Assembly (NCBI GenBank): GCA_964627305.1 | Contig: CAZVHP010000001.1 | Location: 269,792 to 333,791, forward strand | Direction: 5' to 3' | Length of the DNA stretch: 64,000 bases | From: an uncultured Ignavibacteriales bacterium | GTDB taxonomy: Bacteria; Zixibacteria; MSB-5A5; GN15; FEB-12 | Shown: positions 4,012-38,181 of the stretch, piece by piece | How the letters are laid out: each line of letters begins with the position of its first letter | Numbering within the stretch: position 1 is the stretch's first letter | Notes under the pieces: generated by a model | Database searches by the model: none | The model's input: only the letters and a program-made list of their open reading frames with translations | What the model was told of the DNA's origin: nothing | Translations under genes and position numbers: made by a program

Positions 4012-4014
4012 TCG

Positions 4015-5740: not shown

Positions 5741-5811
5741 TGGGAGATCGTCCAATGGTAGGACATGCGGCTCTGGACCGTAGAATCGGGGTTCGAATCC
5801 CTGTCTCCCAG
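5741..5811 (+). tRNA. tRNA-Gln (anticodon CUG)
   Basis: Manual cloverleaf: acceptor TGGGAGA/TCTCCCA, D arm GTCC-AATGGTA-GGAC, anticodon arm TGCGG-CTCTGGA-CCGTA (U33, anticodon CTG, purine 37), variable GAAT, T arm CGGGG-TTCGAAT-CCCTG, discriminator G. CCA is not encoded. Confidence 0.9.
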
Positions 5812-6879: not shown

Positions 6880-7056
6880 CGGACTGCATGTGACACTGCC
6901 GGATGTTGCGGTCGGCAATGGTTCGATGCGGCGCCGTTACCTGGGAAACCATGCCATCGAGTCGATATGGTTATCAGGGAAAGCACGCAGACCGACACCG
7001 CGACAGCAGGCTGCGGGACCCACAAACGAATGACCAGGCGCAAGGAAAGGGCATCT

Positions 7057-16646: not shown

Positions 16647-16891
16647 AGAACCAGCCGGCGGAACATATCCGGGCCAATGGATATTGATGGATATTGTAGA
16701 TTTGACTAATCGACTATTGCTGAGTGATGGCCTCCCTGGAATGGGGCTGCCTGAGCTGGTACAATACGCAAGCAATGACTGCGAGGTAATACATGGCAGA
16801 CGGTCCGACAACATCGACATCCCCGACCCCACAACCGAGCTCCGCGTCGTCTCCGCCAGGGGGTGGCGACCCCGGAGCGGGGGAGAGTGGT

Positions 16892-18037
16892 ATGCGTAAG
16901 TACCTGAAATTCATCATCCCTGTTGCAATTTTGGTTATCGGCTTCGTGGTGATGAATCTTCTGCTGGGTATGCGCGAGCAGCCCCAGCGTCGTACGCCGC
17001 AGCCGCGCCCGCGTATTGTTGCAACCGAGGTCGTGCGGTTAGTTCCTGTGCCGTCGCAGATCATCGCCTACGGCCGCGTACAAAGCGCCGAACCGGTGGA
17101 TCTGTACAGCGAGGTGGCCGGAACGCTGATGCCCGGAGATGTCCCCTTCAAACCGGCCCAGACCTTCTCGAGAGGTGATCTGCTGGTTCGGATAGACGAT
17201 CGACAGGCACGACTCGATCTCAACTCATCGAAAGCCAGCCTGCTGACTGCCTTGGCGCAGGTACTTCCTGAAATTCGGGTCGATTTTCCCGATGAGTATC
17301 AACTCTGGCAGGACTACTTCGACAGCATCGAGTTTGACCAACCCCTGCCGCCGCTGCCGGAGACGGAGAACCAGCGGATCAAGCTGTTCCTTTCACGCTT
17401 CAATGTGTACCAGCTCTACTTCCGCATTCGCGATCAGGAGATCAGGCTGGAAAAACACGCCTTCAGGGCGCCCTTCGACGGCTCCATTGTCTCAGCTGAC
17501 CTGCGAATCGGTTCGATCGCACGCAGCGGCACGAAACTCGGCGAGCTTATCAGCCTTGAGGACCTTGAGGTCGAAGTCCCGGTTCCCGCTCGCGATATCC
17601 AGTGGATAGATTTCACCAAACCGGTGCGTCTGGTATCCGATGAAATCTCCGGAGAATGGAGTGGCGGGATCGCCAGAGTCGGTTCCGACATTGACACCCG
17701 CACCCAGGCGGTCAGCATATTCATCGAGATCGATCCCGGCACGCAGGGTGCGCCGCTCAATGGCGTCTTCATGCAGGCGCAGATACCGGGTATTATCATC
17801 GACCGGGCGCTGTCCATACCGCGACGGGCTCTGTACGATCAGCAGTATGTCTACCTCATAAGAAACGGGCAACTCGAAAGGCAACAGGTAAGCATTGCCC
17901 GTCTGGAGACAGAGGACGCCATCATCAACGGTGGGCTGAATGACGGCGATACTCTCGTGACCGACGTTCTGCAGGGAGTTGCCCCGGGCATGCCTGCCCA
18001 ATCTCGCGGGACCGTAACCGGTGTGGAGACCAACTGA
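16892..18037 (+). CDS. RND efflux periplasmic adaptor (MFP/HlyD family)
   Basis: N-terminal TM anchor KFIIPVAILVIGFVVMNLLL followed by barrel-sandwich/hairpin-like regions. Start set at ATG 16892 (GGGGAGAG upstream); the track start 16793 adds a low-complexity extension. Confidence 0.8.
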   Translation: MRKYLKFIIPVAILVIGFVVMNLLLGMREQPQRRTPQPRPRIVATEVVRLVPVPSQIIAYGRVQSAEPVDLYSEVAGTLMPGDVPFKPAQTFSRGDLLVRIDDRQARLDLNSSKASLLTALAQVLPEIRVDFPDEYQLWQDYFDSIEFDQPLPPLPETENQRIKLFLSRFNVYQLYFRIRDQEIRLEKHAFRAPFDGSIVSADLRIGSIARSGTKLGELISLEDLEVEVPVPARDIQWIDFTKPVRLVSDEISGEWSGGIARVGSDIDTRTQAVSIFIEIDPGTQGAPLNGVFMQAQIPGIIIDRALSIPRRALYDQQYVYLIRNGQLERQQVSIARLETEDAIINGGLNDGDTLVTDVLQGVAPGMPAQSRGTVTGVETN

Positions 18038-21000
18038 TGCGTAGGGTCACAGCATTCATGATCCGTTACCCCGTCTGGGTAACAGTGCTTCTGTTCGGGA
18101 TCGTCGCCTTTGGCCTGATCAGCCTGTCACAGCTCAGATACTCCTTCTTTCCTGAGATCGAGCCTGACATCATTCAGGTGCAGGTTGTCTACCCCGGTGC
18201 TTCTCCCGAGGAGGTCGCCGAGGGTGTGGTGCTCAAGATCGAGGAGAATATCGATGGGCTGGAGGGAGTTGAGCGCATCACGTCGGTCTCTCGCGAGAAC
18301 ATGGGCACTGTCACGGTCGAAGTACTCAAGGGGGCCGATATTGAGTTGGTGCTCGCCGATGTCAAGAACGCCGTCGACCGTATCAATTCATTCCCCGTCG
18401 ATGCCGAGAAGCCCGTGATTTTCAAGCAGCTGTTTCGCACGCGGTCGCTGTCTATTGTCCTGTTCGGCAAGGCTGACTTGTACAACCTGAAACACATCGC
18501 CGAGGCCTTCCGCGACGACCTTCTGGCCGATCCCGGAATCTCACAGGTGAGCATCGAGGGCCTGCCGGCGCTGGAGATCTCAATCGAGGTCTCCGAGGAA
18601 CGCCTCCGCCGCTACCAACTGACTTTTGCCGAGGTTGCCCGCGCCGTAGCTGCAGCCAATGTCAATATCTCCGGCGGTAAGTTTGAAACCGTCGATGAAG
18701 AAATCCTCATCCGCTCCTGGGGACGCGACTATAACGCCCAGGGATTTCTTGATATCCCCGTCAGGGGAAACGCTGACGGTACCGTCGTTCTGCTGAAGGA
18801 TGTTGCCGACATTCACGAGAAGTGGGAAGACAATCCGAGTAAGAGGTATTACAACGGTCAGCCCGCTGTCATACTCAATGTCGACCAAACCGGCAACGAG
18901 GACATCCTGGCCATCGCCGAGAAAGCCAAGGCTGTCCTTGCTGAGTTCAACGATTCCCACCAGTCGGTACAGGGAGTGGTGCTTGATGACCGAACGGTCC
19001 CGCTGACACAAAGGCTTGAGCTGCTGATCAAGAACGGACTGATCGGCCTGCTGCTGATCATCATTGCACTTGGGCTCTTCCTCAATCTGCGATTGTCATT
19101 CTGGGTGGCGATCAGCATTCCCTTCTCATTCGCGGGTATGTTCATCATCGCCAATTTCGCCGGAATCACAGTCAACGTCATTTCGCTGTTCGGTATGATC
19201 ATCGTGGTCGGTATTCTCGTCGATGACGCCATTGTTGTGGCCGAGAACATCTACGCCCAATATGAGAAGGGCAAACCCGCCTTCAGGGCGGCCATCGACG
19301 GCACCATGGAGGTTATCGCGCCCGTAACAACCTCTGTCTTGACGACAGCTATAGCCTTCATGCCGTTCTTTTTCCTTGATGCCATGCTCGGGAAGTTCAT
19401 CTGGCACATGGCGCTGGTGGTGATCGCCTCGCTGATCTTCTCGCTGATAGAGGCCTTCTTCATCCTGCCGTCTCATCTGGCACATTCGCGCGGGTTACGT
19501 TCGCATACCGATGACTCCGGGATCCGAAGGCGGCTTGATGGCCTGTTCCGATATCTTGCGGACAACATATACGGCCCCTCCCTGAGATTTGCCCTGCGCC
19601 ACAAGTGGATTACGGTAGTCACTCCGGTGGCCCTCGTGATGCTCACTGTCGGTTTGATCGGCGGTGGGCTGATTGGCGTGACTTTCTTCCCCTTCATTGA
19701 CGGGGATACTGTTCCCATCAACGTCTCACTGACTTCCGGTCGTCAGGAAGCCGACACTGATTCGTTGCTCGCCCGCATAGAAACGGCCGTCTGGGAGGTG
19801 GGCGAGCAACTTAAGACTGAACGGCCGGATGGCCGTGATGTTGTCCTCGGTGTGCAACGCGACATCGGAAGCAATGACTTTGGTGAATCCGGCAGCCACA
19901 CCGGTCGATTGACTGTCCAACTGCTCGATGGCGAGATCAGGGATATGGAGTCCGTCGTCATTGCCAACCGTATCCGCGAGGCCGTGGGGCCGCTTCCCGA
20001 GGCCAACAATATCACCTTCGGCGAAGTCTCCCGCTTTGGCAAACCGGTGTCAATCAGCCTTCTTTCGAATAATCGTGAGCAACTGGAACAAGCCCGGGAT
20101 ATGCTTCTGACGGAGCTTGAGAATTTCAGCAGTCTCAAAGACGTTACGACCACTGATCAGGAGGGGCGACGCGAGTTGGACATCAGGCTCAAACCGCGTG
20201 CCCACGCCCTCGGATTGACCCTTCAGGATGTGGTCGGTCAGGTACGCCAGGGGTTCTTCGGTCAGGAGATCCAGCGCATTCAGCGCGGTCGCGACGAGAT
20301 CAGGGTGTGGGTGCGCTACCCGGATTCTGATCGCGCCGCCCTCGGGTTTCTCGACCGTATGCGAGTTCGCACCCCCTCAGGTGGCGAGTATCCTTTCAGC
20401 GAGTTGGCTACCTATACTATTGACCGCGGCGTGACCAAGATAAGTCATCTCGATCGTCAGCGCGAAGTCAAGGTCGAAGCCGCCCAGGCCAATATCACTG
20501 ATGATCTTCCCCCCATTCTCAACGAGATCGAGTTTGCGGTCCTGCCTCCCATTCTGGCCCAGAATCCTTCGGTGCGCTACTCGTTCGAGGGACAATCCCG
20601 GTCTCAGGCGAAGATCGCTGCTTCTATGCGTAAGGCCTTTCCGATCGCGCTGATTGGTATGTTCATCCTCGTGGTTCTCGTCTTCCGCTCCTATGCTCAG
20701 GCGTTCATGATTTTCGGCCTGATTCCGATAGGAGTCCTCGGCGCCATCTGGGGACACGGAATACAGGGATTGCAATTGAACATGCTCTCGCTCTTTGGAA
20801 TCATTGCATTGTCAGGGATCATAATCAACAGCAGCATTGTCTTCATCCATCAGATCAACCACAACCTGCGCGACCGCATGCCCGTCGCCGAGGCCGTCTA
20901 CGCTGCCGGTTTAGCGCGTCTGCGACCGATAATGCTGACGACGTTGACAACCGCCCTCGGCCTCGCGCCGCTCATCCTGGAGACCAGCCGTCAGGCCCAG

Positions 21001-21198
21001 TTCCTGATCCCAATGGCGGTCTCAGTGGCCTATGGCCTCATATTCGGCACATTCATTCTTCTGGTCATTCTGCCGGCGAGCTTCCTGGTCTTCAATGCCA
21101 TCCGAGTCAGGGTCAGCGAGCTGTTTACCGGCAAGCGGGTTTCATCAGAGGAGGTCGAACCCGCCGTACAGGAGCTTCAAACCATGGCGACGGATTAA
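18037..21198 (+). CDS. RND efflux permease (AcrB/CzcA superfamily)
   Basis: 1053-aa ORF with the two-fold repeated TM/periplasmic-loop layout of RND pumps. Its ATG overlaps the adaptor stop (CTGATG). Confidence 0.9.
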   Translation: MRRVTAFMIRYPVWVTVLLFGIVAFGLISLSQLRYSFFPEIEPDIIQVQVVYPGASPEEVAEGVVLKIEENIDGLEGVERITSVSRENMGTVTVEVLKGADIELVLADVKNAVDRINSFPVDAEKPVIFKQLFRTRSLSIVLFGKADLYNLKHIAEAFRDDLLADPGISQVSIEGLPALEISIEVSEERLRRYQLTFAEVARAVAAANVNISGGKFETVDEEILIRSWGRDYNAQGFLDIPVRGNADGTVVLLKDVADIHEKWEDNPSKRYYNGQPAVILNVDQTGNEDILAIAEKAKAVLAEFNDSHQSVQGVVLDDRTVPLTQRLELLIKNGLIGLLLIIIALGLFLNLRLSFWVAISIPFSFAGMFIIANFAGITVNVISLFGMIIVVGILVDDAIVVAENIYAQYEKGKPAFRAAIDGTMEVIAPVTTSVLTTAIAFMPFFFLDAMLGKFIWHMALVVIASLIFSLIEAFFILPSHLAHSRGLRSHTDDSGIRRRLDGLFRYLADNIYGPSLRFALRHKWITVVTPVALVMLTVGLIGGGLIGVTFFPFIDGDTVPINVSLTSGRQEADTDSLLARIETAVWEVGEQLKTERPDGRDVVLGVQRDIGSNDFGESGSHTGRLTVQLLDGEIRDMESVVIANRIREAVGPLPEANNITFGEVSRFGKPVSISLLSNNREQLEQARDMLLTELENFSSLKDVTTTDQEGRRELDIRLKPRAHALGLTLQDVVGQVRQGFFGQEIQRIQRGRDEIRVWVRYPDSDRAALGFLDRMRVRTPSGGEYPFSELATYTIDRGVTKISHLDRQREVKVEAAQANITDDLPPILNEIEFAVLPPILAQNPSVRYSFEGQSRSQAKIAASMRKAFPIALIGMFILVVLVFRSYAQAFMIFGLIPIGVLGAIWGHGIQGLQLNMLSLFGIIALSGIIINSSIVFIHQINHNLRDRMPVAEAVYAAGLARLRPIMLTTLTTALGLAPLILETSRQAQFLIPMAVSVAYGLIFGTFILLVILPASFLVFNAIRVRVSELFTGKRVSSEEVEPAVQELQTMATD

Positions 21199-21211
21199 GG
21201 AGGTGACCAAA

Positions 21212-22534
21212 GTGATTCGACATGCAGTGTTTCTGGTCATGATTCTCGTCGTTGGCAGCTACGCCGACGCGACGTCCGCGCAGCTCCTGACCGTCGAGGA
21301 GGCTATCCGCGTCGGTTTGAAGAACAACTATGCCATACAGATTGCCCGGAACGCTGCTGAGAGCGCCGGCAAGCAGCGGGCACTCGGAAGGGCCGAGTTC
21401 ATGCCGACAGTGGATGCCAACGCCGGCTACAATCTGAGCAGCGAGGACGTGGAAACGAACAGCCCGTTCTCTTTCGGCAACTCTGACGCCGAGAACTGGT
21501 CAGCCTCGGCGGCGCTCAACTGGACTGTCTTCGATGGCTTCCGCATGTTCGCCGAAAGGAGCCGCTTCGAAAACCTGGCTCGGCTTGGCGAGACTCAGGC
21601 GCGGCAAACCATTGAGAACGCCGTTGTCGCCATCATGCGCGCTTACTTCAATGTCGTGCAGCAGGAGCAGTTGCTGCATGTATTCAGGCAGTCGCGCGAC
21701 ATTTCGAAGACGCGTCTGGAAAAGGAAGAGCTTCGCAGCGAACTTGGCGGGGCATCATCCACCGATCTGCTCAACGCCCGCGTGGCCTTCAATGCGGATC
21801 AGGCCGCGTTCCTGACGCAGCAACTCCAGGTAACCATTGCCCGCGAGAATCTCAATACACTGCTGGGACGGGAGCCCGGTGTCGATTTCGAAGTTACGCC
21901 AGAGTTCGAGGTGCCGGCACTCGAACGCGATGTAGATCAGATTCTCCGACAGGCCGAGTATCGCAACACTGCCCTCGCAGCAGCCGCCCATCAGAAAGCC
22001 ATCGCCGAGAAACAGGTAACGACCGCAAGCTCCCGGTTTCTGCCGAAGGTGTCACTGAATGCCTCGGCCAGCTATACGGATCGTACCGTCGCGTCCGACC
22101 GGGAAGACTTCACGAATGATATCACTACTCAGACCACGACCTACGGAGTGGGGCTGCAGTTGTCCTTGAATGTTTTCAACGGCTTCCGCGATGGTGTTGC
22201 CGTTCAGCAGGCACGGATCGAAGCTAACAATCGCACCCTGGCCCTGCGCGATGCCCACAACCAGCTCGCCGGACAGGTGAGCCAGGCGATCAAGACCTTC
22301 CGACAGCGGTTGGAGCTGGTCGAACTCGAGACACAGAACGTCGAAGCCGCTCAACGCAACCTTGAACTCATGCAGGATCGGTACCGCCTCGGATCTGCTA
22401 CCTCGCTTGAGTTTCGTGATGCTCAGGTTAGCCTGAACCGTGCCCTCAACGCGCTGATTGTCGCCCGCTATCAGGCGCGGATCAGCCGCCTTGAGCTGGA
22501 CCGACTGACCGGCGATATTCGGATCGAACACTGA
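21212..22534 (+). CDS. TolC-family outer-membrane efflux protein
   Basis: Signal peptide VIRHAVFLVMILVVGSYADA and two OEP-type repeats. AAGGAGG lies 8 nt upstream of GTG 21212; the track start 21032 overlaps the pump gene. Confidence 0.85.
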   Translation: MIRHAVFLVMILVVGSYADATSAQLLTVEEAIRVGLKNNYAIQIARNAAESAGKQRALGRAEFMPTVDANAGYNLSSEDVETNSPFSFGNSDAENWSASAALNWTVFDGFRMFAERSRFENLARLGETQARQTIENAVVAIMRAYFNVVQQEQLLHVFRQSRDISKTRLEKEELRSELGGASSTDLLNARVAFNADQAAFLTQQLQVTIARENLNTLLGREPGVDFEVTPEFEVPALERDVDQILRQAEYRNTALAAAAHQKAIAEKQVTTASSRFLPKVSLNASASYTDRTVASDREDFTNDITTQTTTYGVGLQLSLNVFNGFRDGVAVQQARIEANNRTLALRDAHNQLAGQVSQAIKTFRQRLELVELETQNVEAAQRNLELMQDRYRLGSATSLEFRDAQVSLNRALNALIVARYQARISRLELDRLTGDIRIEH

Positions 22535-22651: not shown

Positions 22652-24415
22652 TTACATCTTGAGCTGTTTACGGGCGAGTTCGCCATACAACGCAGATCGC
22701 TCCAGCAATTGCTCATGCGTGCCCTGATCGACAATCGTCCCCCTGTCCATTACGATGATCCTGTCAGCGTCGCGAACCGTAGCCAGCCGGTGGGCAATGA
22801 TGATCGATGTCTTTCCCTTAAGTGCCTTGTCGAGCGCCTGCTGAATCAATTCTTCGCTGCGCGTGTCCAGCGATGATGTGGCCTCGTCCAGCAGCATGAT
22901 GGGCGGATCCTTCAGTATGGCCCGCGCCAGGCACACTCGCTGACGTTCCCCACCAGAGAGAGTCACCCCGCGCTCGCCAACTTCGGTCTGGTATCCATCG
23001 GGCAAAGATGCAATGAAATCATGGATGTTCGCGATTCTGGCAGCTCGAATGATCCGGTCCAGGTCGGCATCAGGATCGCCATAGGCGATGTTCTCCCGCA
23101 GCGATGCCTTGAACAGCAGCGGCTCCTGATCGACCAGCCCAATCTTAGATCGCAGATCTTTCACCAGCACTCGTCTGACATCAACGCCGTCTATAAGAAT
23201 GCAACCCCGGTGAGGATCAAAGAAACGCAGGATCAGGTTGATGACCGTTGTCTTGCCGGCCCCGGATGGTCCGACAATGGCAACCCGTTCGCCCGGCGCG
23301 ATTGACAGCGACACATCCCTAAGCCTGAAGCCGTTGTCGTCATACGCAAACGACACTCCTTCAAACACGATATGGCCGCGCACATGTTTGAGGTGCATCG
23401 GGTTCTCATCCTCGGCCACCGCCGGCCCAATGTCAAGATACTCAAAAATGCGATGTACCGAGGCCATCGCAATTTCTACGTCGACATTGATCTGCGCCAG
23501 ATCCTGGATCGGCGAATAGAGATAGCCGACGAGAATGTAGAACGCCAGCAGAGTCCCCAGCAGCACGGTATCGCCGGCCACCAGATAGGCGCCCCAGGCC
23601 AGTACTGCAATCGGTGCCAGCATCGTCACGAACTGCACCAGGTTGATTGCCAGCGACGTGAAGACACTGTTTCTAATGTACAGTCCGGTCAGGGATTTCA
23701 GGACACCGTCGGTAGTCTCTTTCTCGCGACGCTCCTGTGCAAACGCCCGGATCGTCCGAATGGCCGAGAACGACTGCTGGTAGCGCCCGGACAACCGTGC
23801 GATCGTCTCCTGCAGCGCCCGGCTTATCCGATGCAGCGACAGCCCGAAGCGATTGGAGAGGAAGATCGTAATCGGCACCGGGATGAGTACTATCAACGTC
23901 CACTTCCAATTCCACACGAGAAGAACCGTAAGGACACCCGCAACCAGCAGGACGTTCATGACAAACATCAACAGCGTCGATGACAGCAGTTGCTGAACGC
24001 GCTGCACGTCCGAGAGCAGCCGTGACATTATTTCCCCGACCTGATTCCTTTGAAAGAAGCGCAGCGGCACATTGGTAAGATGATCGAACAACTCGCTGCG
24101 CATATCCGCGATGATACTCGCCCCTACCCGACCGGCCAGGTAGTCGCGCACCACGGAGAGCCCCAGATTAGCGAGATAGATTCCGGCCAGAAAAGCGCCG
24201 TAGTAAACCACCGGCGTGGCATTCGGGTTGCCCCCTGATTCTCGCTGCTCGGCCAGATCGGGAATGAGATCATCGATCAGGTACTTCAGGGCCAGCGGCA
24301 TGGCAATCGTGACGACCGTCAAAGCGATCATCGTGGCGAACAGCAACAATTCCAGTTTCCAGTAGGGCCTGAGATAGTACCAGAGCCGCCTACGCGTTTT
24401 GGCGTCGGGTATCAT
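22652..24415 (-). CDS. ABC exporter, fused permease/ATPase (MsbA-like half transporter); no N-terminal peptidase domain
   Basis: Six-TM domain followed by Walker A GPSGAGKTT, signature LSGGERQR and Walker B IMLLDEATS. Start set at ATG 24415 (GGGAG upstream), overlapping the preceding gene by 26 nt. Confidence 0.9.
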   Translation of the reverse strand: MIPDAKTRRRLWYYLRPYWKLELLLFATMIALTVVTIAMPLALKYLIDDLIPDLAEQRESGGNPNATPVVYYGAFLAGIYLANLGLSVVRDYLAGRVGASIIADMRSELFDHLTNVPLRFFQRNQVGEIMSRLLSDVQRVQQLLSSTLLMFVMNVLLVAGVLTVLLVWNWKWTLIVLIPVPITIFLSNRFGLSLHRISRALQETIARLSGRYQQSFSAIRTIRAFAQERREKETTDGVLKSLTGLYIRNSVFTSLAINLVQFVTMLAPIAVLAWGAYLVAGDTVLLGTLLAFYILVGYLYSPIQDLAQINVDVEIAMASVHRIFEYLDIGPAVAEDENPMHLKHVRGHIVFEGVSFAYDDNGFRLRDVSLSIAPGERVAIVGPSGAGKTTVINLILRFFDPHRGCILIDGVDVRRVLVKDLRSKIGLVDQEPLLFKASLRENIAYGDPDADLDRIIRAARIANIHDFIASLPDGYQTEVGERGVTLSGGERQRVCLARAILKDPPIMLLDEATSSLDTRSEELIQQALDKALKGKTSIIIAHRLATVRDADRIIVMDRGTIVDQGTHEQLLERSALYGELARKQLKM

Positions 24416-25823
24416 CCAGCCACTCCCGGAAGTAGTTGCGGGCCGCAAATGCTCTTGCCTCCGGCGCCAGGGCCGTCCGCATTCGTTCCAGCCGCTCGTT
24501 CATCATGCTTTCCCACAGACGAACACCATCCCCGCTGAGGTCCCGCGAGGGGACCACCTGCATGCTTGCTTCGTACTGGTCGGCTGCATCTTTCCACCAG
24601 TCACCAGAGTTGAACTCCGCACCGAACTGTGACTGATACCACTCTCGCTGGTCGTCCACGGCGCATCCCGGAAAGTGCATGTAGCCATGAGGCGCCCATA
24701 TCAGATACGAGGGCGACTCCTCCAGCTCTCGATCCATGAACGCAAAGGTCTCATCCAGCGTCTGCCGCGTTTCACCCGGATGATTGAATATCACATTGGC
24801 TCGATGCATTATGCGATGCCTGGTTAGAAGACGGCTGACATGCCGAAACTGCTGCAGATAGCGCTCCGGGTGACGAGTCTTGTTCATGAGTCGGAGCATA
24901 TCCAGAGAGCCGCTCTCCAGCCCAAACTGAACCTCCACCTTCAGGTCCGCAAGCATGGCGATATCTCTCTCATCAAGATACTCCGGGCGCGTTTCGAAGA
25001 CAATCCAATAGTCATCTCCGCGCTCGCATAGCTTGCGAAGGAACTCCCTGCGCCACGACGGTCTCATGCCAAAGCAGGCATCGGCGATTGCGATTGAGTG
25101 AGGCGTCAAGAAGTCGTACAGGCGTTCCATTTCATCGAGGGCGGCAGCGACCGTGTACGACCGCCAGCGTCGGTCCTTGGTCGGCTCCATGCAGAACGAG
25201 CAGGCAAACGGGCATCCCCGCGAGAGATACAGGCACGGCCCCTTGATGCCCTCCGGTACATGTTCCCGAACGAAATCGGCCAACAGGTCCCACCGATAGG
25301 GAACGAAATGCTCTTCGCCGACTGCCGCTCCCCGGATCACCCGCGTTGCATTCGGTCGCCCCTCCCGGGCGTGTCGCTCGGCCACGTGTTCCAGCGCCAG
25401 CTCACCCTCGCCGCAGACCACAAAATCAAACAGCCCGCTGCCGTTGTCAAATTCGTTTGGCCGGGCTGTGACGTGGTATCCGCCGACGACTATGAGTTTC
25501 TCAGGGAACAGATCCCGACAAATCCGAGCCACAGACAGCGTCGCACGATACGACAGCGATGTCCAGCAGGAAATCGCCAGAATATCAAACTCGTGCGATA
25601 GAAGAAAGCGCCGAACGTGTCGCTCATAGCGGCGGATTTGCGTGGGGCTGTTGGGGCGTCCGATCTGCTGCTCGAAATCGGCATATGACACCCCGAAGCG
25701 CCGGCTCAGGTACGATGCCAGCCAGACCAGCGACGTCTTGAGTTCCGCCCGCTCCATCCACGGTGGGTAGAAAAAGCAGGACGGATGAAGTAAGAGAATG
25801 TGCGGCGTCTTACCGCTGGTCAT
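24390..25823 (-). CDS. B12-binding-domain radical SAM enzyme
   Basis: N-terminal Rossmann-like B12-type domain (ILLLHP...ILAISCWTS...LIVVGGYHVT) followed by YLSRGCPFACSFC (CxxxCxxC). ATG 25823 overlaps the upstream gene stop by 14 nt. Confidence 0.8.
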   Translation of the reverse strand: MTSGKTPHILLLHPSCFFYPPWMERAELKTSLVWLASYLSRRFGVSYADFEQQIGRPNSPTQIRRYERHVRRFLLSHEFDILAISCWTSLSYRATLSVARICRDLFPEKLIVVGGYHVTARPNEFDNGSGLFDFVVCGEGELALEHVAERHAREGRPNATRVIRGAAVGEEHFVPYRWDLLADFVREHVPEGIKGPCLYLSRGCPFACSFCMEPTKDRRWRSYTVAAALDEMERLYDFLTPHSIAIADACFGMRPSWRREFLRKLCERGDDYWIVFETRPEYLDERDIAMLADLKVEVQFGLESGSLDMLRLMNKTRHPERYLQQFRHVSRLLTRHRIMHRANVIFNHPGETRQTLDETFAFMDRELEESPSYLIWAPHGYMHFPGCAVDDQREWYQSQFGAEFNSGDWWKDAADQYEASMQVVPSRDLSGDGVRLWESMMNERLERMRTALAPEARAFAARNYFREWLDDTRRQNA

Positions 25824-26925
25824 CAGGTACGACCACCCGTTCGTGCTCGGCCCTGAACGGTGCCAGAAGTTCGGCCATCTGTTCAGTGATGGTCGGCTCG
25901 ATCCCGCGCTTCCGTTCAATCTGGTAAATGCAGTACGGGTTGTTAGCCCGTTCGCCCGAAGCTGACACCGAGGTCGTCATACAGCCACCCCTGCACAGCG
26001 GCAGGAACTGACAATCGCGGCACTCACCAGAGGCTGTGTCGCGCGTGAACTTACGATTGTACAGGAACCTGGTCGGGTCGTTCCATATCCTGGTGAACGA
26101 TGATTCCCGAATATTGCCCTCGACGAACTCCGGTTGCTGCGACAGACAACCCTTCACATCCCCGTTTGAGCAGATCCCGGCCACGCGCGTGCCGGCATAG
26201 CATCCCAAGTACGGCACATCATCCAGCAGCTTGCTGCCCTTGCAGCCGTAATAGCCGATATTCTCGCCGACATCGATCGGGACCCGTCCGTCTCTCTTGA
26301 GTTCCATGATCTTGTCGATCATCCGTTCGAACAACTCAAGATCCATCACCATGTCCTTCTGCATCCGCCCGGTGACAGTCGTCATCTGGATCCGCCATTC
26401 GCTGGCGCCGACATCAACAAGGTCCTTGTAGATGTGATCGAGGTCGTCAATGTTGACCCGTGAAACCTGCGTGACAGCCTCGAACCGCTGCCCGGCTGCG
26501 CGCAAGTGCCGCATCGCATTGAGTGCTCGCTCGTAGCTTGACTTGTGCTGACGGATATAGTTGTGCACATCGCGGCTGCCGTCGAAACTGACCCCGATAT
26601 TGCCGAAGCCAATGTCCACGAACTGCCGGGCGATGTCCTCAGTCACCATGTAGCCGTTCGTGATCAGAAAAGTGCCTATCCCGCGCTCTTTGCTGCGACG
26701 CGCCAGCACCGGCCAGTCCTTCCGCATCAGCGGTTCCCCGCCGGACAGTGTTAACCCCCGGCAGCCAAGATCCGCCAACTCATCGATCAGTGCCAGCGAC
26801 TCCTCTGTCGTCAGTTCATCACTGCGCGGAACACCGGCAGAAGTCCCGCAATGGATACAACGCATATTGCAGGCATAGGTGATCTCCCATACGACTTGTT
26901 CTGGGAAGAACTTGAACTCACTCAT
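25810..26925 (-). CDS. Radical SAM/SPASM-domain enzyme (no N-terminal extension)
   Basis: CxxxCxxC at residues 19-26 (YACNMRCIHC). C-terminal SPASM-type Cys pattern GCYAGTRVAGICSNGDVKGC ... CRDCQFLPLCRGGC. Its SD GGAAAGGAG lies inside the last codons of the upstream gene. Confidence 0.85.
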   Translation of the reverse strand: MSEFKFFPEQVVWEITYACNMRCIHCGTSAGVPRSDELTTEESLALIDELADLGCRGLTLSGGEPLMRKDWPVLARRSKERGIGTFLITNGYMVTEDIARQFVDIGFGNIGVSFDGSRDVHNYIRQHKSSYERALNAMRHLRAAGQRFEAVTQVSRVNIDDLDHIYKDLVDVGASEWRIQMTTVTGRMQKDMVMDLELFERMIDKIMELKRDGRVPIDVGENIGYYGCKGSKLLDDVPYLGCYAGTRVAGICSNGDVKGCLSQQPEFVEGNIRESSFTRIWNDPTRFLYNRKFTRDTASGECRDCQFLPLCRGGCMTTSVSASGERANNPYCIYQIERKRGIEPTITEQMAELLAPFRAEHERVVVPDDQR

Positions 26926-26928
26926 CTG

Positions 26929-28308
26929 TTACTCCTTTCCGGCGGTTCGCACTTCGGAGGCCTGTTGCGCCTGTTGACGACGCTGCATCTCCTGCTGTCG
27001 CGAAACCGCGATAATTTCCAGCATCGGCTGCAGGTTGTGCTTCCAACCCTCGCACATCTGCTCATCGGACAGCCCTCGGTCCACCCGACGGGCCGGACAG
27101 CCCCCCATGCAGACAGGAAGGACACTGCACTCAAGGCATCGACTGTCTTCAAAGGGGGTATATTCAAAAAGCCGCGTGAAATTCGGATGCAGCAAGTTGA
27201 TTTCATCCATAATCGTTCCCGAGGCTTTGCTCTGATCACCGACATCATTCCAGCAGCGGTAAAGCCACCCCTCGGGATCGACAAGAAACGCGTTGACCGT
27301 CTGCGTCATGCAGAACGTCGAAATCGGCGAGGGGAGTTTCTGGATCACGAAACCCCGCTGGAGCAGTTCATGGTAGTACTGCACCTCAATCTGGGAGAAA
27401 TCCGCCACCTCATAGCAGGCCTCAGCGATATTCGAGCAGACCTGTGACGCCGCCTCTACCATGCCGAAATACACCCCCACTTTGTCCCGCAGCCCCGCTT
27501 CCACAAGCTCGTCGAGCAACTCGCTGATGTCATCGACGGTAAACGACTTGTCGACATTTACACGAACCCCGATCTGCATCTTCCGTTCAACGGCCGCCTG
27601 TACGTTGACGATAATGCGATCAAAGCTGTCACCGCCGTTTCGCAACGGACGCTTCGTATTGTGAAGCCGCGCCGGGCCGTCCAGAGTCACCTGCGCGCTG
27701 AAGACTCGAAGCCCCATCAGTCTGTCCACTGTCTCCGGGGTCAGCAGGTAACCGTTGGTGACAATCGATGAGCTGTAGTCAAATTTGTACTCCTGTCCAA
27801 GATCGAGAAAAGACTCCGTGAGATCCTCGATCACGTCCAGAGCCAGCAGCGGCTCCCCGCCGTACCAGCCAACATCGAGCGCTCCGATTTGTCTTGCCTG
27901 CTTTTCAACAAACTCTATGACGGCCTCGATGACTTTCGGAGACATCTTCGTGGCAGTGTGTTTCTCAAAACAATAGGTACAGGCCATGTTGCAGGCCATT
28001 GTCGGTGCTATGACCAGGCCCAGCCCCGTGCGATTGAATCGGCTGAGGTTATGAGCCAGTTTGAGCCTGGTGATCTCGTCCACATCACCAGTGTGCACGA
28101 AACACCCATACTCGAGCTGCTTCAGTAATTCGCTTTCCGATTCGGTCAGCTCAGGTGAAGGATTCCGCTCGAGCTTGGCTGCCAACTGCTGATACACCTC
28201 CAGGTTCTCCTGTGTCATCAGCGCCACCGCGCCGGATAGGGCATTGTAGGCGAGGACATAACCATCCTGCCACGGGTGGAAATGGTTGTATCGAGATATC
28301 TTAGGCAT
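26929..28308 (-). CDS. Radical SAM/SPASM peptide maturase with about 100-residue N-terminal (RRE-position) extension
   Basis: CxxxCxxC at Cys106/110/113 (MACNMACTYC). N-terminal YNALSGAVALMT segment as in AslB/sactisynthase-type enzymes. C-terminal CLECSVLPVCMGGCPARR SPASM motif. Confidence 0.85.
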   Translation of the reverse strand: MPKISRYNHFHPWQDGYVLAYNALSGAVALMTQENLEVYQQLAAKLERNPSPELTESESELLKQLEYGCFVHTGDVDEITRLKLAHNLSRFNRTGLGLVIAPTMACNMACTYCFEKHTATKMSPKVIEAVIEFVEKQARQIGALDVGWYGGEPLLALDVIEDLTESFLDLGQEYKFDYSSSIVTNGYLLTPETVDRLMGLRVFSAQVTLDGPARLHNTKRPLRNGGDSFDRIIVNVQAAVERKMQIGVRVNVDKSFTVDDISELLDELVEAGLRDKVGVYFGMVEAASQVCSNIAEACYEVADFSQIEVQYYHELLQRGFVIQKLPSPISTFCMTQTVNAFLVDPEGWLYRCWNDVGDQSKASGTIMDEINLLHPNFTRLFEYTPFEDSRCLECSVLPVCMGGCPARRVDRGLSDEQMCEGWKHNLQPMLEIIAVSRQQEMQRRQQAQQASEVRTAGKE

Positions 28309-28456
28309 GATAAGTATCCATGGTGCGAACTTCGAGACGAGGGTTACCAGTGTCTTTGCGCCGGCTCTCCGTCTGTTACGTGGTCCTTGCTATCTCCTGC
28401 CGGCCGATCAGCATCTCTCAGGGAAGTCGTTGTGACACGACAACCGAAGAACTGGC

Positions 28457-28483
28457 TCGCGCCGTGCGAGGGCCACGGCGCGA
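28457..28483 (-). terminator. Perfect 10-bp GC-rich hairpin between precursor gene and first maturase (partial terminator / mRNA-stabilising element)
   Basis: TCGCGCCGTG-CGAGGGC-CACGGCGCGA, starting 20 nt after the precursor stop. On the mRNA it is followed by GCCAGUUCUUCGGUUGUCGUGU, which is U-enriched but not a clean U-tract. Confidence 0.55.
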
Positions 28484-28503
28484 ACCATAGTCTCTGCAAT
28501 CGC

Positions 28504-28626
28504 TTAGATCTCGACCGGATCAATACCGTACAACGGCTTAATCCCGCAGTAGGTCGAGCACTTCAGTCTGCAGTCGCCGGTAACCGACTGACGCAGCGTG
28601 TTCTGCGGATCGATCAAATAGATCAT
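28504..28626 (-). CDS. 40-aa Cys-x3-Cys-x3-Cys peptide, candidate RiPP precursor (not in the ORF track)
   Basis: ATG 28626 preceded by GGGAGGTG plus a 6-nt spacer. Translation is MIYLIDPQNTLRQSVTGDCRLKCSTYCGIKPLYGIDPVEI with stop TAA at 28504-28506. 31 of 40 codons end in G/C, like the neighbouring genes. It is the first gene of the rSAM operon. Confidence 0.8.
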   Translation of the reverse strand: MIYLIDPQNTLRQSVTGDCRLKCSTYCGIKPLYGIDPVEI

Positions 28627-28845
28627 TCAATTCACCTCCCTTCGATCATTCCGCGGTTCACTCCTGTGCCTTACCCGTCCGTATTTCCATTCTGGCGGCA
28701 AGGCTCACCTCGTGGCACGTAGCACCACATAGCTATGAGTACGGGACGGCCCGCAGGGGACCTCCCGGCTATTAAGATTCGACCGGTTCATACTTCCAGA
28801 TGATAGCAGTTTCAAAGATGTTATTCTAACTCTCGATTATCTGGT

Positions 28846-28875
28846 ATTATAATCACATGACCCGCACGCGGTCAA
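28846..28875 (-). promoter_or_regulatory. Sigma70-like promoter of the precursor/rSAM operon
   Basis: On the minus strand: TTGACC (28875-28870), 18-nt spacer, TATAAT (28851-28846). It sits in the only AT-rich patch of the region and implies a 5' UTR of about 210 nt. Confidence 0.55.
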
Positions 28876-34660: not shown

Positions 34661-34689
34661 AGAATATGCTGCCCTCTACGTTCTGTCAA
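34661..34689 (-). promoter_or_regulatory. Sigma70-like promoter driving the structured RNA
   Basis: On the minus strand: TTGACA (34689-34684), 17-nt spacer, TATTCT (34666-34661). Confidence 0.55.
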
Positions 34690-34896
34690 GCACTAAGTTG
34701 CCTGCTCTTCATTTTTAATGTGTTACGAGTTATCCACTTTTGCAGGTGGTGGCTGATATCTTTGAGCGGTTGGCCGAAGTGCTGTCCTCTTTGGGCCCCC
34801 CCAGCAATGAACAACTTCTCGTTGAACTCGGCCCAGCGATCTGCTACATTGCTGCCAGTGTTCACAAAGCATCCTCGATCTCAGGAGAACCGTCCC

Positions 34897-37800
34897 ATGT
34901 CTCGTTCTTTCCCGGCTGCCGCTTTCTTTTTCGCACTGCTGTTACCATTGCTGGTGTCATCGTCGCCGAGTCCGGCCGACCAACCCGGGCCGCAGGGCTA
35001 TTATCGGTATCCTGCCATTGGCGGAGGTTTCATAGTGTTTACCGCCGAGGGCGACCTCTGGCGGGTGCCAATCGAAGGCGGTCTGGCCCGGCGCCTGACC
35101 ACCCATCATGGATGGGAGTATCGCCCCGTTGTCTCACCCGACGGAACACAAGTGGCCTTTACTGCCCAATACGAGGGTACCAGCGATGTCTATGTCATGC
35201 CGCTTGCCGGCGGTTTACCACGGCGCCTGACTTGGGAGAACGAGCAAAGCTATGTCGCCTCATGGATCGACAACAAGATCCTGCTGTATGCCACCTCGCA
35301 CTTCTCTACCCTGCCGAGCTATCAACTGGTCAGGCTCAACCTGACCACCGGTGAGCGGGTACCCGTCCCCCTGGCGCAGGCCGCCGATGGTGTCCATGGT
35401 GACGCCGAAGAGCTGTTCTTCGTCCGTCTCCCGCACCAGGGGAGCCACGCCCGAAACTACCCCGGTGGTACGGTACAGAACCTCTGGAAGTTCACTCCCG
35501 ATATGGCCGACGCCGTAAGACTGCATCCCGACTTCGAAGGTACCAGCCGCAGCCCCATGTGGTGGCAGGGAAGAGTGTACTTCGCCACTGACCGTGACCG
35601 GACCATAAACCTCTGGTCGATGCTCCCGGATGGCACCGACCTCAGGCAGCACACGTTCCATGAAGGATGGGACGTGAAATCTCCCGCTTTGTCTGATGGT
35701 ATGATTGTCTATCAGCTCGGGGCCGACCTGTACCTGTACGAGATCGCCACCGATCAGACGGCCATGGTCGAGATTACTCTCGCCTCCGATTTCGACCAGA
35801 TGCGCGAGAAGTGGATCGACAAGCCGATGGATTATCTGACCTCTGCCCATTTGTCCGGTGACGGCAGCCACGTTGTGCTTACTGCCCGCGGGCAGGTGTT
35901 CGTGCGACCGGTGAAGGCCGGCCGAATGCGGGAAGTCACCCGCAATGACGGCGTGCGCTACCGCAGCGCCCGGTTTCTGCATGGCAACGACACCCTGATT
36001 GCCCTCTCGGACGAAAGCGGCGAGGTGGAGTTCTGGCAACTGCTCGCCGACGGCACCGGAGTCCCTCTGCAGCTTACCGACAATGCCGAGGTACTGCGCT
36101 TCGATGGCCTTCCGTCGCCCGATGGGAATCTCATCGCCTACACCGACAAGAACAACAGGCTATGGGTCTATGAACGTGACCGTGATCGGCACCGGCTGGT
36201 TGACAGCGGTCGCTACGGCGCCGCCCATGACCCCACCTGGGCACCGGACAGCCGCCATCTGGCCTGGGTCGGCGAGGCCGAAAACGACTTCTCCCGGATA
36301 TGGATCTACGCGGTTGTTGATGATGAGCGCTTTGCCGTCACCAGCGATCACTATGAATCCTATGACCCCGCTTTCAGCCCCGATGGCAAGTGGCTGTACT
36401 TCATATCACAGCGCAATCTGGATGCGATCGCCGGCAATGTCTGGGGGCCGCGTGCAGAGCAGCCGTTCCTATACGCTCCGGCCAAACTATATCAGCTGGC
36501 CCTGTCCAAAGACGCCCGGTCGCCATTCGAGTTGAAGGATGAGCTTACCCTCAAGACTGAAGCGACAGCGAAGACCGACAAAGATGACAAGAAGGATCAG
36601 AAGCCGGCTGTCGTGGTCAGCATCGATCGCGATTCACTACCGTGGCGCCTGTATGAACTCCCGGTCGACGGCGGCAACTACACTGACCTGAATGTAACCG
36701 ATAAGGCTGTCTACTACCGCTCCTGGCCCGCTGTCGGCAGCCGCAAATACACGCTCAATGTCCTCGAAATCAGCGATGATTCTCCCAAACCGGCCGAATT
36801 CGCGAGCAACATTTCGGAATACGAGCTGTCAGGCGATCTGTCGAAGATACTCCTGAGGTCCGGCGATAACCTCTATGTCGTCGACGCCTCCGTCAGCCCT
36901 CCTGCCAGTCTCGATAAAGGCAGGCTGGACCTGACCTCGTGGACGTTCCCGCTCAACCCGCGCGAGGAGTGGCGTCAGATGTTCCTTGAGGCGTGGCGTC
37001 TCGAACGGGATTACTTCTACGATACTGGTATGCACGGTGTGGACTGGACAGCCATCCGCGACAAGTATCTTCCTCTGGTCGACCGCGTCACCGATCGCTG
37101 GGAGCTTAGCGACCTGCTGGCCCACATGATCAGCGAGTTGTCGGCCCTGCATATGACAGTCGGCGGCGGTGATCACCGCACTGCCGAGGAGAAAGTCACC
37201 ATCGCCTCGCTTGGCGCACTGCTGATACGCGATGTTCGCGGCGGTGGCTACCGCGTTGACCACATCTACCGCGGTGATCCCGAACGTCCGGAGACACTCA
37301 GCCCGCTGGCCAAACCCGGAGTCGGAATCACCGAGGGGGATATGCTGGTCGGTATCAATGGGCAGGACGTCCTGAAGGCATCGCATATCAACGAGCTCAT
37401 TCGCAACAGGGTCGGTCAACAGGTGCTCGTGGAATACAAACCGCATAATCGGTCCGGCACCGAAAAGGCCATTGTCGTTCCCGTCTCAGGAGCAGCCGAG
37501 CGCAATCTTCGCTACCTCGACTGGGAGATCACGCGCCGCCGGATGGTCGACAGCCTCAGCGACGGCCAGATCGGCTATGTCCACATTCGCGCTATGGGGC
37601 GCGGCAACTACGCTGAGTGGGCACGCGACTTCTTCCCCGTCTGGAATCGCCCCGGGCTCATTATCGATGTCCGCCACAACCAGGGCGGCAATATCGACAG
37701 TTGGATTATCGGATCGCTGCTGCGTAAGCCGTTCCTGTGGTGGCAGCCCCGCATAGGGCAGGCCGACCCCAACTTCCAGTACGGTTTCGCCGGCCACATG

Positions 37801-38181
37801 GTCACGCTTTGCAATGAATGGACTTCCTCCGACGGGGAAATGTTCGTGGAAGGTTTTCGCCGCCTGCAACTGGGCAAAGTGATCGGCACCCGGACCTGGG
37901 GAGGCGGCATCTGGCTGAGCTACGCCAATCGCCTCGTCGATAACGGCATCGCAAGTGCGGCCGAATTCGGTGTGTTCGGACCCGAAGGAAGCTGGCCGAT
38001 CGAATGGTACGGCGTCGAGCCGGACAGCACGGTGGACAATCTGCCCCACGAGACGTTCAACGGCCGCGACCGCCAGCTCGAAACAGCCATAGAGCACCTG
38101 ATGGACAAGATACGCACCGATCCGATCGAGCGCCCGATCGGCCCCGAATACCCGGACCGGACACGACCGGACCAGCAGTGA
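34897..38181 (+). CDS. Tricorn-protease homolog (S41B peptidase with beta-propeller, PDZ and C-terminal catalytic domains), exported
   Basis: AGGAGA 8 nt upstream of ATG 34897. Signal peptide MSRSFPAAAFFFALLLPLLVSS. Tricorn N-terminal signature YRYPAIGGGFIVFTAEGDLWRVPIEGG.ARRLT. WD40/TolB-like repeats (SPDG...) and an S41-type C-terminal domain. Confidence 0.85.
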   Translation: MSRSFPAAAFFFALLLPLLVSSSPSPADQPGPQGYYRYPAIGGGFIVFTAEGDLWRVPIEGGLARRLTTHHGWEYRPVVSPDGTQVAFTAQYEGTSDVYVMPLAGGLPRRLTWENEQSYVASWIDNKILLYATSHFSTLPSYQLVRLNLTTGERVPVPLAQAADGVHGDAEELFFVRLPHQGSHARNYPGGTVQNLWKFTPDMADAVRLHPDFEGTSRSPMWWQGRVYFATDRDRTINLWSMLPDGTDLRQHTFHEGWDVKSPALSDGMIVYQLGADLYLYEIATDQTAMVEITLASDFDQMREKWIDKPMDYLTSAHLSGDGSHVVLTARGQVFVRPVKAGRMREVTRNDGVRYRSARFLHGNDTLIALSDESGEVEFWQLLADGTGVPLQLTDNAEVLRFDGLPSPDGNLIAYTDKNNRLWVYERDRDRHRLVDSGRYGAAHDPTWAPDSRHLAWVGEAENDFSRIWIYAVVDDERFAVTSDHYESYDPAFSPDGKWLYFISQRNLDAIAGNVWGPRAEQPFLYAPAKLYQLALSKDARSPFELKDELTLKTEATAKTDKDDKKDQKPAVVVSIDRDSLPWRLYELPVDGGNYTDLNVTDKAVYYRSWPAVGSRKYTLNVLEISDDSPKPAEFASNISEYELSGDLSKILLRSGDNLYVVDASVSPPASLDKGRLDLTSWTFPLNPREEWRQMFLEAWRLERDYFYDTGMHGVDWTAIRDKYLPLVDRVTDRWELSDLLAHMISELSALHMTVGGGDHRTAEEKVTIASLGALLIRDVRGGGYRVDHIYRGDPERPETLSPLAKPGVGITEGDMLVGINGQDVLKASHINELIRNRVGQQVLVEYKPHNRSGTEKAIVVPVSGAAERNLRYLDWEITRRRMVDSLSDGQIGYVHIRAMGRGNYAEWARDFFPVWNRPGLIIDVRHNQGGNIDSWIIGSLLRKPFLWWQPRIGQADPNFQYGFAGHMVTLCNEWTSSDGEMFVEGFRRLQLGKVIGTRTWGGGIWLSYANRLVDNGIASAAEFGVFGPEGSWPIEWYGVEPDSTVDNLPHETFNGRDRQLETAIEHLMDKIRTDPIERPIGPEYPDRTRPDQQ

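Follow-up and report, generated by a model that had tools for sequence, protein, structure and literature searches.

The DNA analysed here (the window) is a stretch of 64,000 nt from contig CAZVHP010000001.1 of an uncultured Ignavibacteriales bacterium placed in the Zixibacteria. Positions 22652-28875 hold five co-oriented, translationally coupled minus-strand genes. These encode a 40 aa cysteine-containing peptide, two radical S-adenosylmethionine (rSAM) enzymes with SPASM domains (rSAM1 and rSAM2), a cobalamin (B12)-type rSAM enzyme and an ATP-binding cassette (ABC) half-transporter. On balance, the cluster probably specifies a hybrid pathway for a peptide that is made on the ribosome and modified after translation (a RiPP), in which Cys cross-linking of the CteB/Clo7bot kind would be joined by a splicease acting at a P-X-Y-G motif, by optional B12-dependent tailoring and by export. 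The cluster combines known kinds of component and lies outside every curated family considered; the suggestion of the first-pass annotation, made from the DNA letters, that it matches no characterized class is upheld, since no curated family cut-off is reached. That the two SPASM enzymes are likely to have different targets on one peptide is best supported by the co-occurrence of precursor motifs and enzymes described below.

Related loci, cited below by L numbers, were sought in a scan with one genome per species. Orthologues of rSAM1 with 50-62% identity were found in 29 species-level genomes, after which the next tier of relatives falls sharply to 38% identity or less. In all 29 an rSAM2 orthologue (52-64% identity) lies directly 3' of rSAM1, usually with the ABC transporter gene next, and three more contigs, reached through rSAM2 homologues, have the same gene order. 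Because this order recurs in at least 32 other genomes, counting the 29 and the three contigs, with the 40 aa open reading frame (ORF) conserved in frame, the cluster is confirmed as real and conserved far beyond chance. The locus of the window is also present, identical, on metagenome contigs of up to ~0.5 Mb, where the 40 aa ORF has been called by independent gene callers. Most of the carriers are annotated as metagenome-assembled genomes (MAGs) of Zixibacteria or of 'Ignavibacteriales/Ignavibacteria', with single genomes labelled Calditrichaeota, FCB group and Thermodesulfobacteriota. The family is large: identity to the window protein is 54% or more throughout the best 120 relatives of each SPASM enzyme, counted after clustering at 90% identity. 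The search for rSAM2 homologues gave only close orthologues (at least 57% identity) and no intermediate forms.

The precursor family was collected by scanning the loci for the N-terminal motif upstream of the rSAM1 orthologues; a database search with the 40 aa query found two proteins, the word index being unsuited to such short queries. A total of 42 ORFs (41 unique) upstream of rSAM1 and five in the extra loci make up 46 distinct precursors. The start codon of each, ATG or GTG, encodes the initial residue of M-[IVLT]-[YF]-[LI]-[IV]-[DE]-P, and a GGAGG-type ribosome-binding site lies 5-9 nt upstream. The window precursor, MIYLIDPQNTLRQSVTGDCRLKCSTYCGIKPLYGIDPVEI, has the Shine-Dalgarno (SD) sequence GGGAGGTG 6 nt 5' of its ATG. 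In many loci the gene is repeated two or three times in tandem, and every copy has an SD of its own. Wherever the upstream DNA can be read, a precursor is present (in L010 this DNA is masked by N). The earlier proposal of a RiPP operon with a genuine Cys precursor is borne out by these 46 conserved homologues, and the small Cys peptide that it expected to recur across genomes accompanies rSAM1 and rSAM2 in every readable locus. No NCBIfam or Pfam model covers the family.

The precursors are 33-48 aa long and usually have two to four Cys, the number ranging up to five with one outlier at seven. In 27 out of 41, position 15 holds the first Cys, and the spacing is mostly i, i+4 (CxxxC). Near the C-terminus there is a P-X-Y-G motif in 39 out of 41 precursors and in all five from the extra loci (44 out of 46 in total). 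The X of this motif, among 39 peptides, is Leu in 28, Met in 6 and Cys in 5, while Pro at -2 is invariant among the precursors that have the motif. After the motif comes V or I, next in most cases P or D, and finally a tail of 3-10 residues; the last Cys is often 6-8 residues ahead of the motif Tyr. A second YG-type site is present in PTYGQPQPLYGV (L012:1725-1871), in KPLYGVPLYGVEV (L024:7647-7772) and in L006:7531-7647 (PLYDMPKPLYG); on their sequences these three precursors are candidates for double splicing. In L008, positions 6712-6933 and 7388-7609 are a direct duplication of at least ~220 nt in which the precursor gene is repeated without change, together with the DNA upstream of it; this looks like a recent tandem amplification of the precursor.

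Comparison with more distant clusters separates the two ends of the precursor. Relatives of rSAM1 at 32-38% identity include proteins of Clostridium botulinum, Paraclostridium and many Clostridia, where they belong to Clo7bot-type clusters; the alignment is full-length and includes the N-terminal domain. The peptides of these clusters also begin at Met1 with a motif, M-x-[YF]-[ILV]-x-x-P (for example MKFIKKP, MKYIVKP and MIFIVEP), and continue into a Cys-rich core. P-x-Y-G is found in 0 out of 84 Clo7bot-type peptides from 23 loci, versus 44 out of 46 peptides in the rSAM2 loci, and neither rSAM2 nor the B12 enzyme is present in the Clo7bot-type loci. This pattern indicates that the N-terminal motif and the Cys core travel with rSAM1 and that P-X-Y-G travels with rSAM2.

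The resemblance to the Clo7bot system (maturase TIGR04334, ctpM, with peptides of TIGR04333, and the related TIGR04463 and CefB) extends further. In both peptide sets the Cys core is reached ~7 residues after the motif, and in both the precursor genes are often duplicated in tandem. Clo7bot-type clusters (L034:6267-7852, L035-L037, L040, L043, L057 and L082) have 5-9 tandem Cys-rich peptides with M-[KR]-[FY]-[IV]-x-x-P at Met1. The present cluster differs in the addition of rSAM2, the P-x-Y-G tail and sometimes the B12 enzyme, and its precursors are outside TIGR04333: four window-type precursors had no match to this model, compared with 36-60 bits (cut-off 31) for four Clostridial controls. 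The N-terminal motif looks like a minimal leader common to very distant taxa, from Clostridia to Zixibacteria, and is probably read by the recognition element of the maturase.

The enzyme that accompanies P-X-Y-G, rSAM2, consists of a Radical_SAM domain (PF04055, 98.6 bits) and a SPASM domain (PF13186, 35.2 bits), the Cys of the latter being C302-x2-C305-x5-C311-x3-C315. Its two best NCBIfam matches are both full-length: TIGR03913 ('GDL motif peptide-associated' maturase) with 236.7 bits (cut-off 591.75) and TIGR04103 ('nif11-class peptide radical SAM maturase 3') with 227.3 bits (cut-off 725). In tblastn searches against plasmid records, members of these two families and unnamed relatives had 203-229 bits and 34-39% identity to rSAM2, and MftC, NirJ, pseudo-SAM proteins and PqqE had 93-141 bits. 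A neighbour-joining (distance) tree was made with six reference sequences and 100 bootstraps; the splicease-type references were annotated TIGR04103 and TIGR03913 members from the plasmid records. The rSAM2 orthologues form one separate clade (100 out of 100), and in 98 out of 100 this clade joins the splicease-type references to the exclusion of MftC, PqqE, NirJ, a pseudo-SAM protein and rSAM1. Eleven signature residues, in GYYG, KGC.S and NNPYC blocks, are common only to rSAM2 and the splicease-type references. Judging by the matching names, TIGR04103 is presumably the same family as IPR026482. The splicease-type enzymes, the group of PlpX, RasX and RhaX, are leaderless rSAM/SPASM proteins like rSAM2 and are its nearest relatives. 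The founding splicease PlpX belongs to IPR026482, an rSAM subclass acting on Nif11/NHLP precursors (PMC11002830).

Peptides encoded beside the reference enzymes have comparable sites. A Nostoc Nif11 precursor has the C-terminal sequence ...GGRGSIALYGLPPELF (ALYGLPPELF), Azospirillum DUF1843 peptides start MSTPPIRMLYGG (IRMLYGG) and ...RSIKPYGV, and an unannotated Agathobacter ORF ends ...FGPVMYGTGVRM (PVMYGTG). The last of these is from Agathobacter rectalis, a human-gut member of the Lachnospiraceae, in which the ORF MFNLEELSLEFVKISELKTSKNLFGPVMYGTGVRM at L085:3800-3990 (+) is directly 5' of a splicease-like rSAM gene (3983-5137) and a major facilitator superfamily transporter gene; it looks like an unannotated spliceotide precursor. 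Among their first 5-12 residues, the DUF1843 peptides beside TIGR03913 maturases (L083:3055-3755, L086:3168-3881 and L087:560-751) have xYG, xYA or xYM; these peptides are triplicate in Azospirillum and Aureibacter, and occur with DUF1842 proteins in Burkholderia.

Published splice sites are X-Y-G, with Met or Leu as the native X (PMC9811515), and that of RasA is LYG (PMC11626197). The engineered splice tag PIRPGYGLPI (PMC10533398, supplementary information) is very similar to the I-K-P-L-Y-G-[VI]-P of the cluster precursors. The near-invariant X-Y-G of these precursors, its position near the C-terminus, the short tail and the ALYGLPP-like context are all shared with spliceotides. From these likenesses, rSAM2 most likely excises tyramine at P-X-Y-G, which would leave a ketoamide. 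There are also differences from spliceotide systems. Identity of rSAM2 to the splicease-type families is 33-37%. The cluster precursors are 33-48 aa with a seven-residue N-terminal motif instead of Nif11/NHLP leaders or DUF1843, rSAM2 has in every case a CteB-like partner with a recognition element, to which it is translationally coupled, there is a Cys-rich core, and the carriers are mostly Zixibacteria.

The other SPASM enzyme, rSAM1, has its SPASM domain detected as TIGR04085. It is below the cut-off of every NCBIfam family, the best being the Clo7bot maturase TIGR04334, full-length, with 359.5 bits (cut-off 600), then TIGR04463 with 303.7 bits (cut-off 525). The high-scoring families are all maturases of Cys-rich peptides, and include Clo7bot, TIGR04463, CefB, the geopeptide maturase and PapB; PapB itself has 125 bits (cut-off 340) and the SCIFF maturase 85.3 bits (cut-off 425). 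An AlphaFold2 model was made from a 14-sequence alignment (mean pLDDT 74). Its N-terminus has strands at residues 8-12, 17-22 and 27-32, then helices at 33-47, 56-67 and 78-89. This beta3-alpha3 arrangement is the winged-helix RRE (RiPP recognition element) topology, modelled with pLDDT ~76-87; Pfam PqqD has no match in rSAM1. Beyond it the model has a TIM barrel as its core and then the SPASM region, at lower confidence. With this model, Foldseek placed CteB first (5why/5wgg, E 1e-17, 458 aligned columns), followed by anSME, TigE and SuiB, and CteB is also the nearest solved sequence. The N-terminal recognition element that had been proposed from the ~100 residues ahead of the first Cys cluster is therefore supported by the predicted fold and by CteB as the best full-length match.

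Its RRE-rSAM-SPASM architecture is common to rSAM1 and the ranthipeptide and sactipeptide synthases such as CteB and PapB. The substrates of those systems likewise contain Cys with CxxxC-type spacing, although the cluster precursor resembles neither SCIFF nor CxxxD-repeat peptides. By analogy with them, rSAM1 most likely forms thioethers on the CxxxC core.

The first-pass annotation had taken both SPASM enzymes to be Cys cross-linkers. It overlooked the conserved P-X-Y-G, and its assignment does not fit rSAM2, which is nearest to the tyramine-splicease families. That both enzymes form sacti- or ranthipeptide thioethers on the three Cys, for a peptide with multiple cross-links and perhaps methylation, with P-X-Y-G as a structural or recognition motif, is considered improbable. 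Both have complete sets of SPASM Cys, several Cys are available in each precursor, and rSAM2 has weaker matches to StsB (122 bits) and to SkfB (75 bits), the nearest solved chain. However, the number of Cys varies while both enzymes are constant, and the Clo7bot-type cores, which are even richer in Cys, have a single rSAM1-type enzyme and no rSAM2. The two enzymes are 21% identical, the tree places rSAM2 with TIGR03913 and TIGR04103, and the appearance of rSAM2 coincides with that of P-X-Y-G.

Maturation of a cofactor or protein encoded elsewhere (pyrroloquinoline quinone (PQQ), mycofactocin, heme d1 or an anSME-like substrate), with the small ORF incidental, is very unlikely indeed. Full-length matches of rSAM2 to such families do exist, and rSAM1 has 82 bits against anSME. 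For rSAM2 these are AhbD 174 bits, NirJ2 171, NirJ 137, MftC 157 and PqqE 102, yet the respective cut-offs are 500 for AhbD, 515 for NirJ, 265 for MftC and 381 for PqqE. Partner genes of the pqq, mft, nir or ahb kind are absent from the window and the related loci. Every readable locus keeps the small ORF in frame, often as a tandem set of two or three with an SD each, and the ABC exporter is conserved alongside. This reading, which had been named beforehand as the one that firm clustering with cofactor families would favour, is effectively refuted.

A Tyr-directed reaction other than splicing by rSAM2 is possible, but rather unlikely; this would be a C-C, C-O or C-S cross-link of the cyclophane or MftC type, or a Cys-Tyr link. 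The next-nearest family to rSAM2 is MftC, which modifies Tyr, and a Cys is at X in five precursors and often 6-8 residues ahead of the Tyr. MftC, however, requires a C-terminal Tyr, and here 3-10 residues follow the YG. The Gly is as conserved as the Tyr, P-x-Y-G-[VI]-P mirrors the splice sites and the published tag, and the variation of X among Leu, Met and Cys is expected of splicing and not of a fixed cross-link.

Splicing by rSAM2 and thioether formation by rSAM1 are still the preferred assignments, and a number of observations weigh against them. The score of rSAM2 is far under the curated cut-offs of both splicease-type families and it forms a clade of its own, as would suit another Tyr-directed chemistry. 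The enzymes of TIGR03913 are taken to be spliceases, what was seen here being the xYG and xYA of their neighbouring peptides. Two precursors lack the YG (PLYS and PTFG), both from L011, where rSAM2 is present. At this most divergent locus (L011:4035-4884), from an FCB-group MAG, rSAM2 has 53% identity and neither the B12 nor the ABC gene is present within 7 kb; the cluster may be in decay, or its specificity may differ. For rSAM1, thioether formation is argued by analogy and relatives of its architecture carry out other chemistry. TigE, which has the same architecture, makes cyclopropyl groups. No conserved residue that could be the thioether acceptor is evident in the core, and the literature on Clo7bot, OhkG, FlmE, CefB, TIGR04334 and TIGR04463 yielded no relevant chemistry. 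Lastly, the known binary spliceases have an alpha-helix in the leader as their activator, and type I spliceases a Y protein (PMC11414181). The cluster precursors are without a long leader, having ~14 residues ahead of the core, and the operon is without a Y gene or extra small gene, which also favours a different Tyr chemistry. The RRE of rSAM1 could stand in for the Y protein or leader helix.

The third rSAM protein has a B12-binding domain (PF02310, 41.8 bits) and a Radical_SAM domain (PF04055, 63.1 bits). Because it is present in just 18 out of 30 informative loci, it is an accessory enzyme of optional tailoring. In 10 loci the gene is missing and rSAM2 is directly followed by the ABC gene, and two more loci are without both. 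The earlier claim that three rSAM enzymes are dedicated to one substrate was therefore overstated for this enzyme, while rSAM1 and rSAM2 are constant. Its best NCBIfam score is 74 bits, to TIGR04013 (cut-off 251); TIGR03975 has 62 bits (cut-off 282), and no score approaches the respective cut-off. Among solved chains TokK is the nearest (45 bits); the best relative in plasmid records is 24% identical and lies among helicase and methyltransferase genes, a non-RiPP context. The order of an N-terminal B12 domain and then the rSAM CxxxCxxC, within a RiPP operon, is that of the class B cobalamin-dependent rSAM RiPP methyltransferases (TIGR03975, PoyB/C). The enzyme is much shorter (477 aa) than those of the PoyC type and is dispensable in 40% of clusters. 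C-methylation is the default guess for its action. No precursor feature that tracks the presence of the B12 gene was found: L016, without it, and L009, L014 and L018, with it, have near-identical precursors.

The ABC protein has ABC_membrane (172.9 bits, residues 24-302) and ABC_tran (115.3 bits) domains and resembles MsbA and bacteriocin-exporter families, below all cut-offs. An orthologue follows rSAM2 or the B12 gene in 25 out of the 27 loci that extend far enough. It starts directly with ABC_membrane, with no match to a C39 or other peptidase domain, and no leader protease is encoded in the cluster.

In the proposed pathway, the winged-helix RRE of rSAM1 would bind the first seven residues of the precursor, M-I-Y-L-I-D-P, and rSAM1 would turn the core Cys (Cys19, 23 and 27 in the window) into thioethers. 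A tyramine equivalent would then be removed by rSAM2 from Tyr33 of P31-L32-Y33-G34, with the backbone rejoined as an alpha-keto-beta-leucine ketoamide. Where present, the B12 enzyme would add a further modification, and the ABC transporter would export the product. This product would be a Cys-cross-linked ketoamide peptide, plausibly an inhibitor of serine or cysteine proteases as characterized spliceotides are (PMC9811515, PMC11414181, PMC11626197). It is tentatively suggested that the cluster represents an undescribed RiPP class, widespread in Zixibacteria, with a precursor of 33-48 aa, a seven-residue recognition motif, a product constrained by thioethers through a CteB-like enzyme and spliced to a ketoamide by a new splicease clade, and one RRE that would serve rSAM2 and the B12 enzyme as well.

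Potent protease inhibitors have the ketoamide as their pharmacophore. If the proposed pathway is correct, it is a compact, leader-minimal system that joins backbone splicing to macrocyclization and gives a rigid ketoamide; its products, natural and exported, would inhibit proteases as ketoamides locked in their conformation, with optional B12-dependent modification. In known spliceotide pathways the substrates have long Nif11/NHLP leaders or are whole proteins, and a 2022 review notes that native end products had not yet been isolated (PMC9811515). The 46 natural precursor variants are a ready-made substrate library, and the cluster is a natural test of how an enzyme that lacks an RRE is recruited to its peptide. 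It would also be an instance of modular RiPP evolution, with a Clo7bot-type leader and Cys module joined to a splice module. Specialized chemistry is thereby indicated in the Zixibacteria, an uncultured phylum for which no literature linking it to spliceotides or ranthipeptides was found. Should rSAM2 not be a splicease, a new Tyr-directed radical chemistry would be indicated.

The layout of the cluster is given in Table 1. The coordinates, the order of the five minus-strand genes, the junctions and the Cys positions recorded in the first-pass annotation were all exact on re-checking. The rSAM1/rSAM2 junction reads GGAAAGGAG-TAA-CAG-ATG, a 3 nt gap; the ATG of the B12 gene at 25823 gives a 14 nt overlap with the rSAM2 stop, and that of the ABC gene at 24415 a 26 nt overlap with the B12 gene stop. 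All three enzymes have the Radical_SAM domain in the Pfam and NCBIfam searches, with the CxxxCxxC at Cys106/110/113 in rSAM1, Cys19/23/26 in rSAM2 and Cys204/208/211 in the B12 enzyme. A CxxCx5Cx3C SPASM pattern is present in rSAM1 and rSAM2.

Table 1. Positions in the window of the genes, domains and other features of the cluster
Feature	Position	Strand	Description
Precursor gene	28504-28626	minus	40 aa; Cys19/23/27
Precursor, MIYLIDP leader	28606-28626	minus	
Precursor, Cys core	28546-28572	minus	CRLKCSTYC
Precursor, PLYG	28525-28536	minus	predicted splice motif
rSAM1	26929-28308	minus	459 aa; RRE-rSAM-SPASM
rSAM1, RRE	28024-28308		~residues 1-95
rSAM1, CxxxCxxC	27970-27993		
rSAM1, SPASM	27076-27312		residues 333-411
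rSAM2	25810-26925	minus	371 aa; rSAM-SPASM, no N-terminal extension
rSAM2, CxxxCxxC	26848-26871		
rSAM2, SPASM	26008-26202		residues 242-306
B12-rSAM enzyme	24390-25823	minus	477 aa from ATG
B12-rSAM, B12 domain	25383-25727		residues 33-147
B12-rSAM, rSAM domain	24738-25229		residues 199-362
ABC half-transporter	22652-24415	minus	587 aa from ATG; predicted product exporter
Promoter-like site, sigma-70-type	28846-28875	minus	TTGACC-18 nt-TATAAT
GC-rich hairpin, 14 bp stem	28453-28487	minus	just 3' of precursor stop, then GTTCTTCGGTTGT

The five genes had been placed behind one promoter. A near-consensus site is indeed present ~220 nt 5' of the precursor ATG and matches 11 out of 12 consensus positions, which makes a promoter here plausible from its sequence; the number of matches in the region as a whole is not above that in shuffled sequences, so the site stands as a consensus match alone. 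The 5' leader folds no better than shuffles, leaving a riboswitch without support, and searches of the leader and the intergenic spacer against Rfam matched no families. The sole Rfam match above the gathering score in the whole window is a tRNA gene at 5741-5811 (+). Three other small frames were rejected as precursor genes, each without a family match. These are a 30 aa TTG frame overlapping the precursor start and ORFs of 59 aa (28344-28523) and 36 aa (28705-28815); the 40 aa frame alone was recovered in related loci.

The region between the precursor and rSAM1 genes has a predicted fold of -73.6 kcal/mol (z = -2.1), and the 80 nt after the precursor stop one of -40.8 kcal/mol (z = -5.9 relative to other segments of the same sequence). 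In the related loci z is below -1.5 for 17 out of 42 precursor genes. Strong GC-rich hairpins of 10-14 bp follow the precursor stops in L009, L013, L014, L016-L019, L022, L026 and L032, and that of L013 is a canonical hairpin and T-run terminator. The hairpin may be a partial terminator or attenuator, or an mRNA stabilizer, that sets an excess of precursor over enzymes, in which case it would probably keep the precursor mRNA above the enzyme mRNA.

No neighbouring gene beyond the core set is conserved across the related loci. In the window the flanks encode resistance-nodulation-division (RND) efflux, glutaminyl-tRNA synthetase, the pyruvate dehydrogenase complex, ion exchangers or transporters and a DUF6599 protein. 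The RND efflux set at 16793-22534 (+), with an HlyD-type adaptor, an AcrB-type pump and an outer-membrane factor, faces the 3' end of the ABC gene in convergent orientation; this adjacency is probably coincidental because it is not conserved in the related loci. A gene for a Tricorn/S41 protease is present at 34666-38181 (+), ~6 kb upstream of the cluster, and one 47% identical to it adjoins the cluster in a second Zixibacteria genome (L094:1-2556). An Asp-protease/PDZ gene is in its place at L095:2004-3869. The Tricorn neighbour was seen in the window and L094 and is not general across the loci; it is suggestive in that a protease neighbour fits a putative protease inhibitor as the product. 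At least six genomes encode, beside the cluster, a hybrid histidine kinase of very large size with PAS/GAF and receiver domains (L004:1584-6719 (+), its homologues in L005, L010, L013, L027 and L032, and L096:9396-13034). This kinase is absent from the window and may be a regulator.

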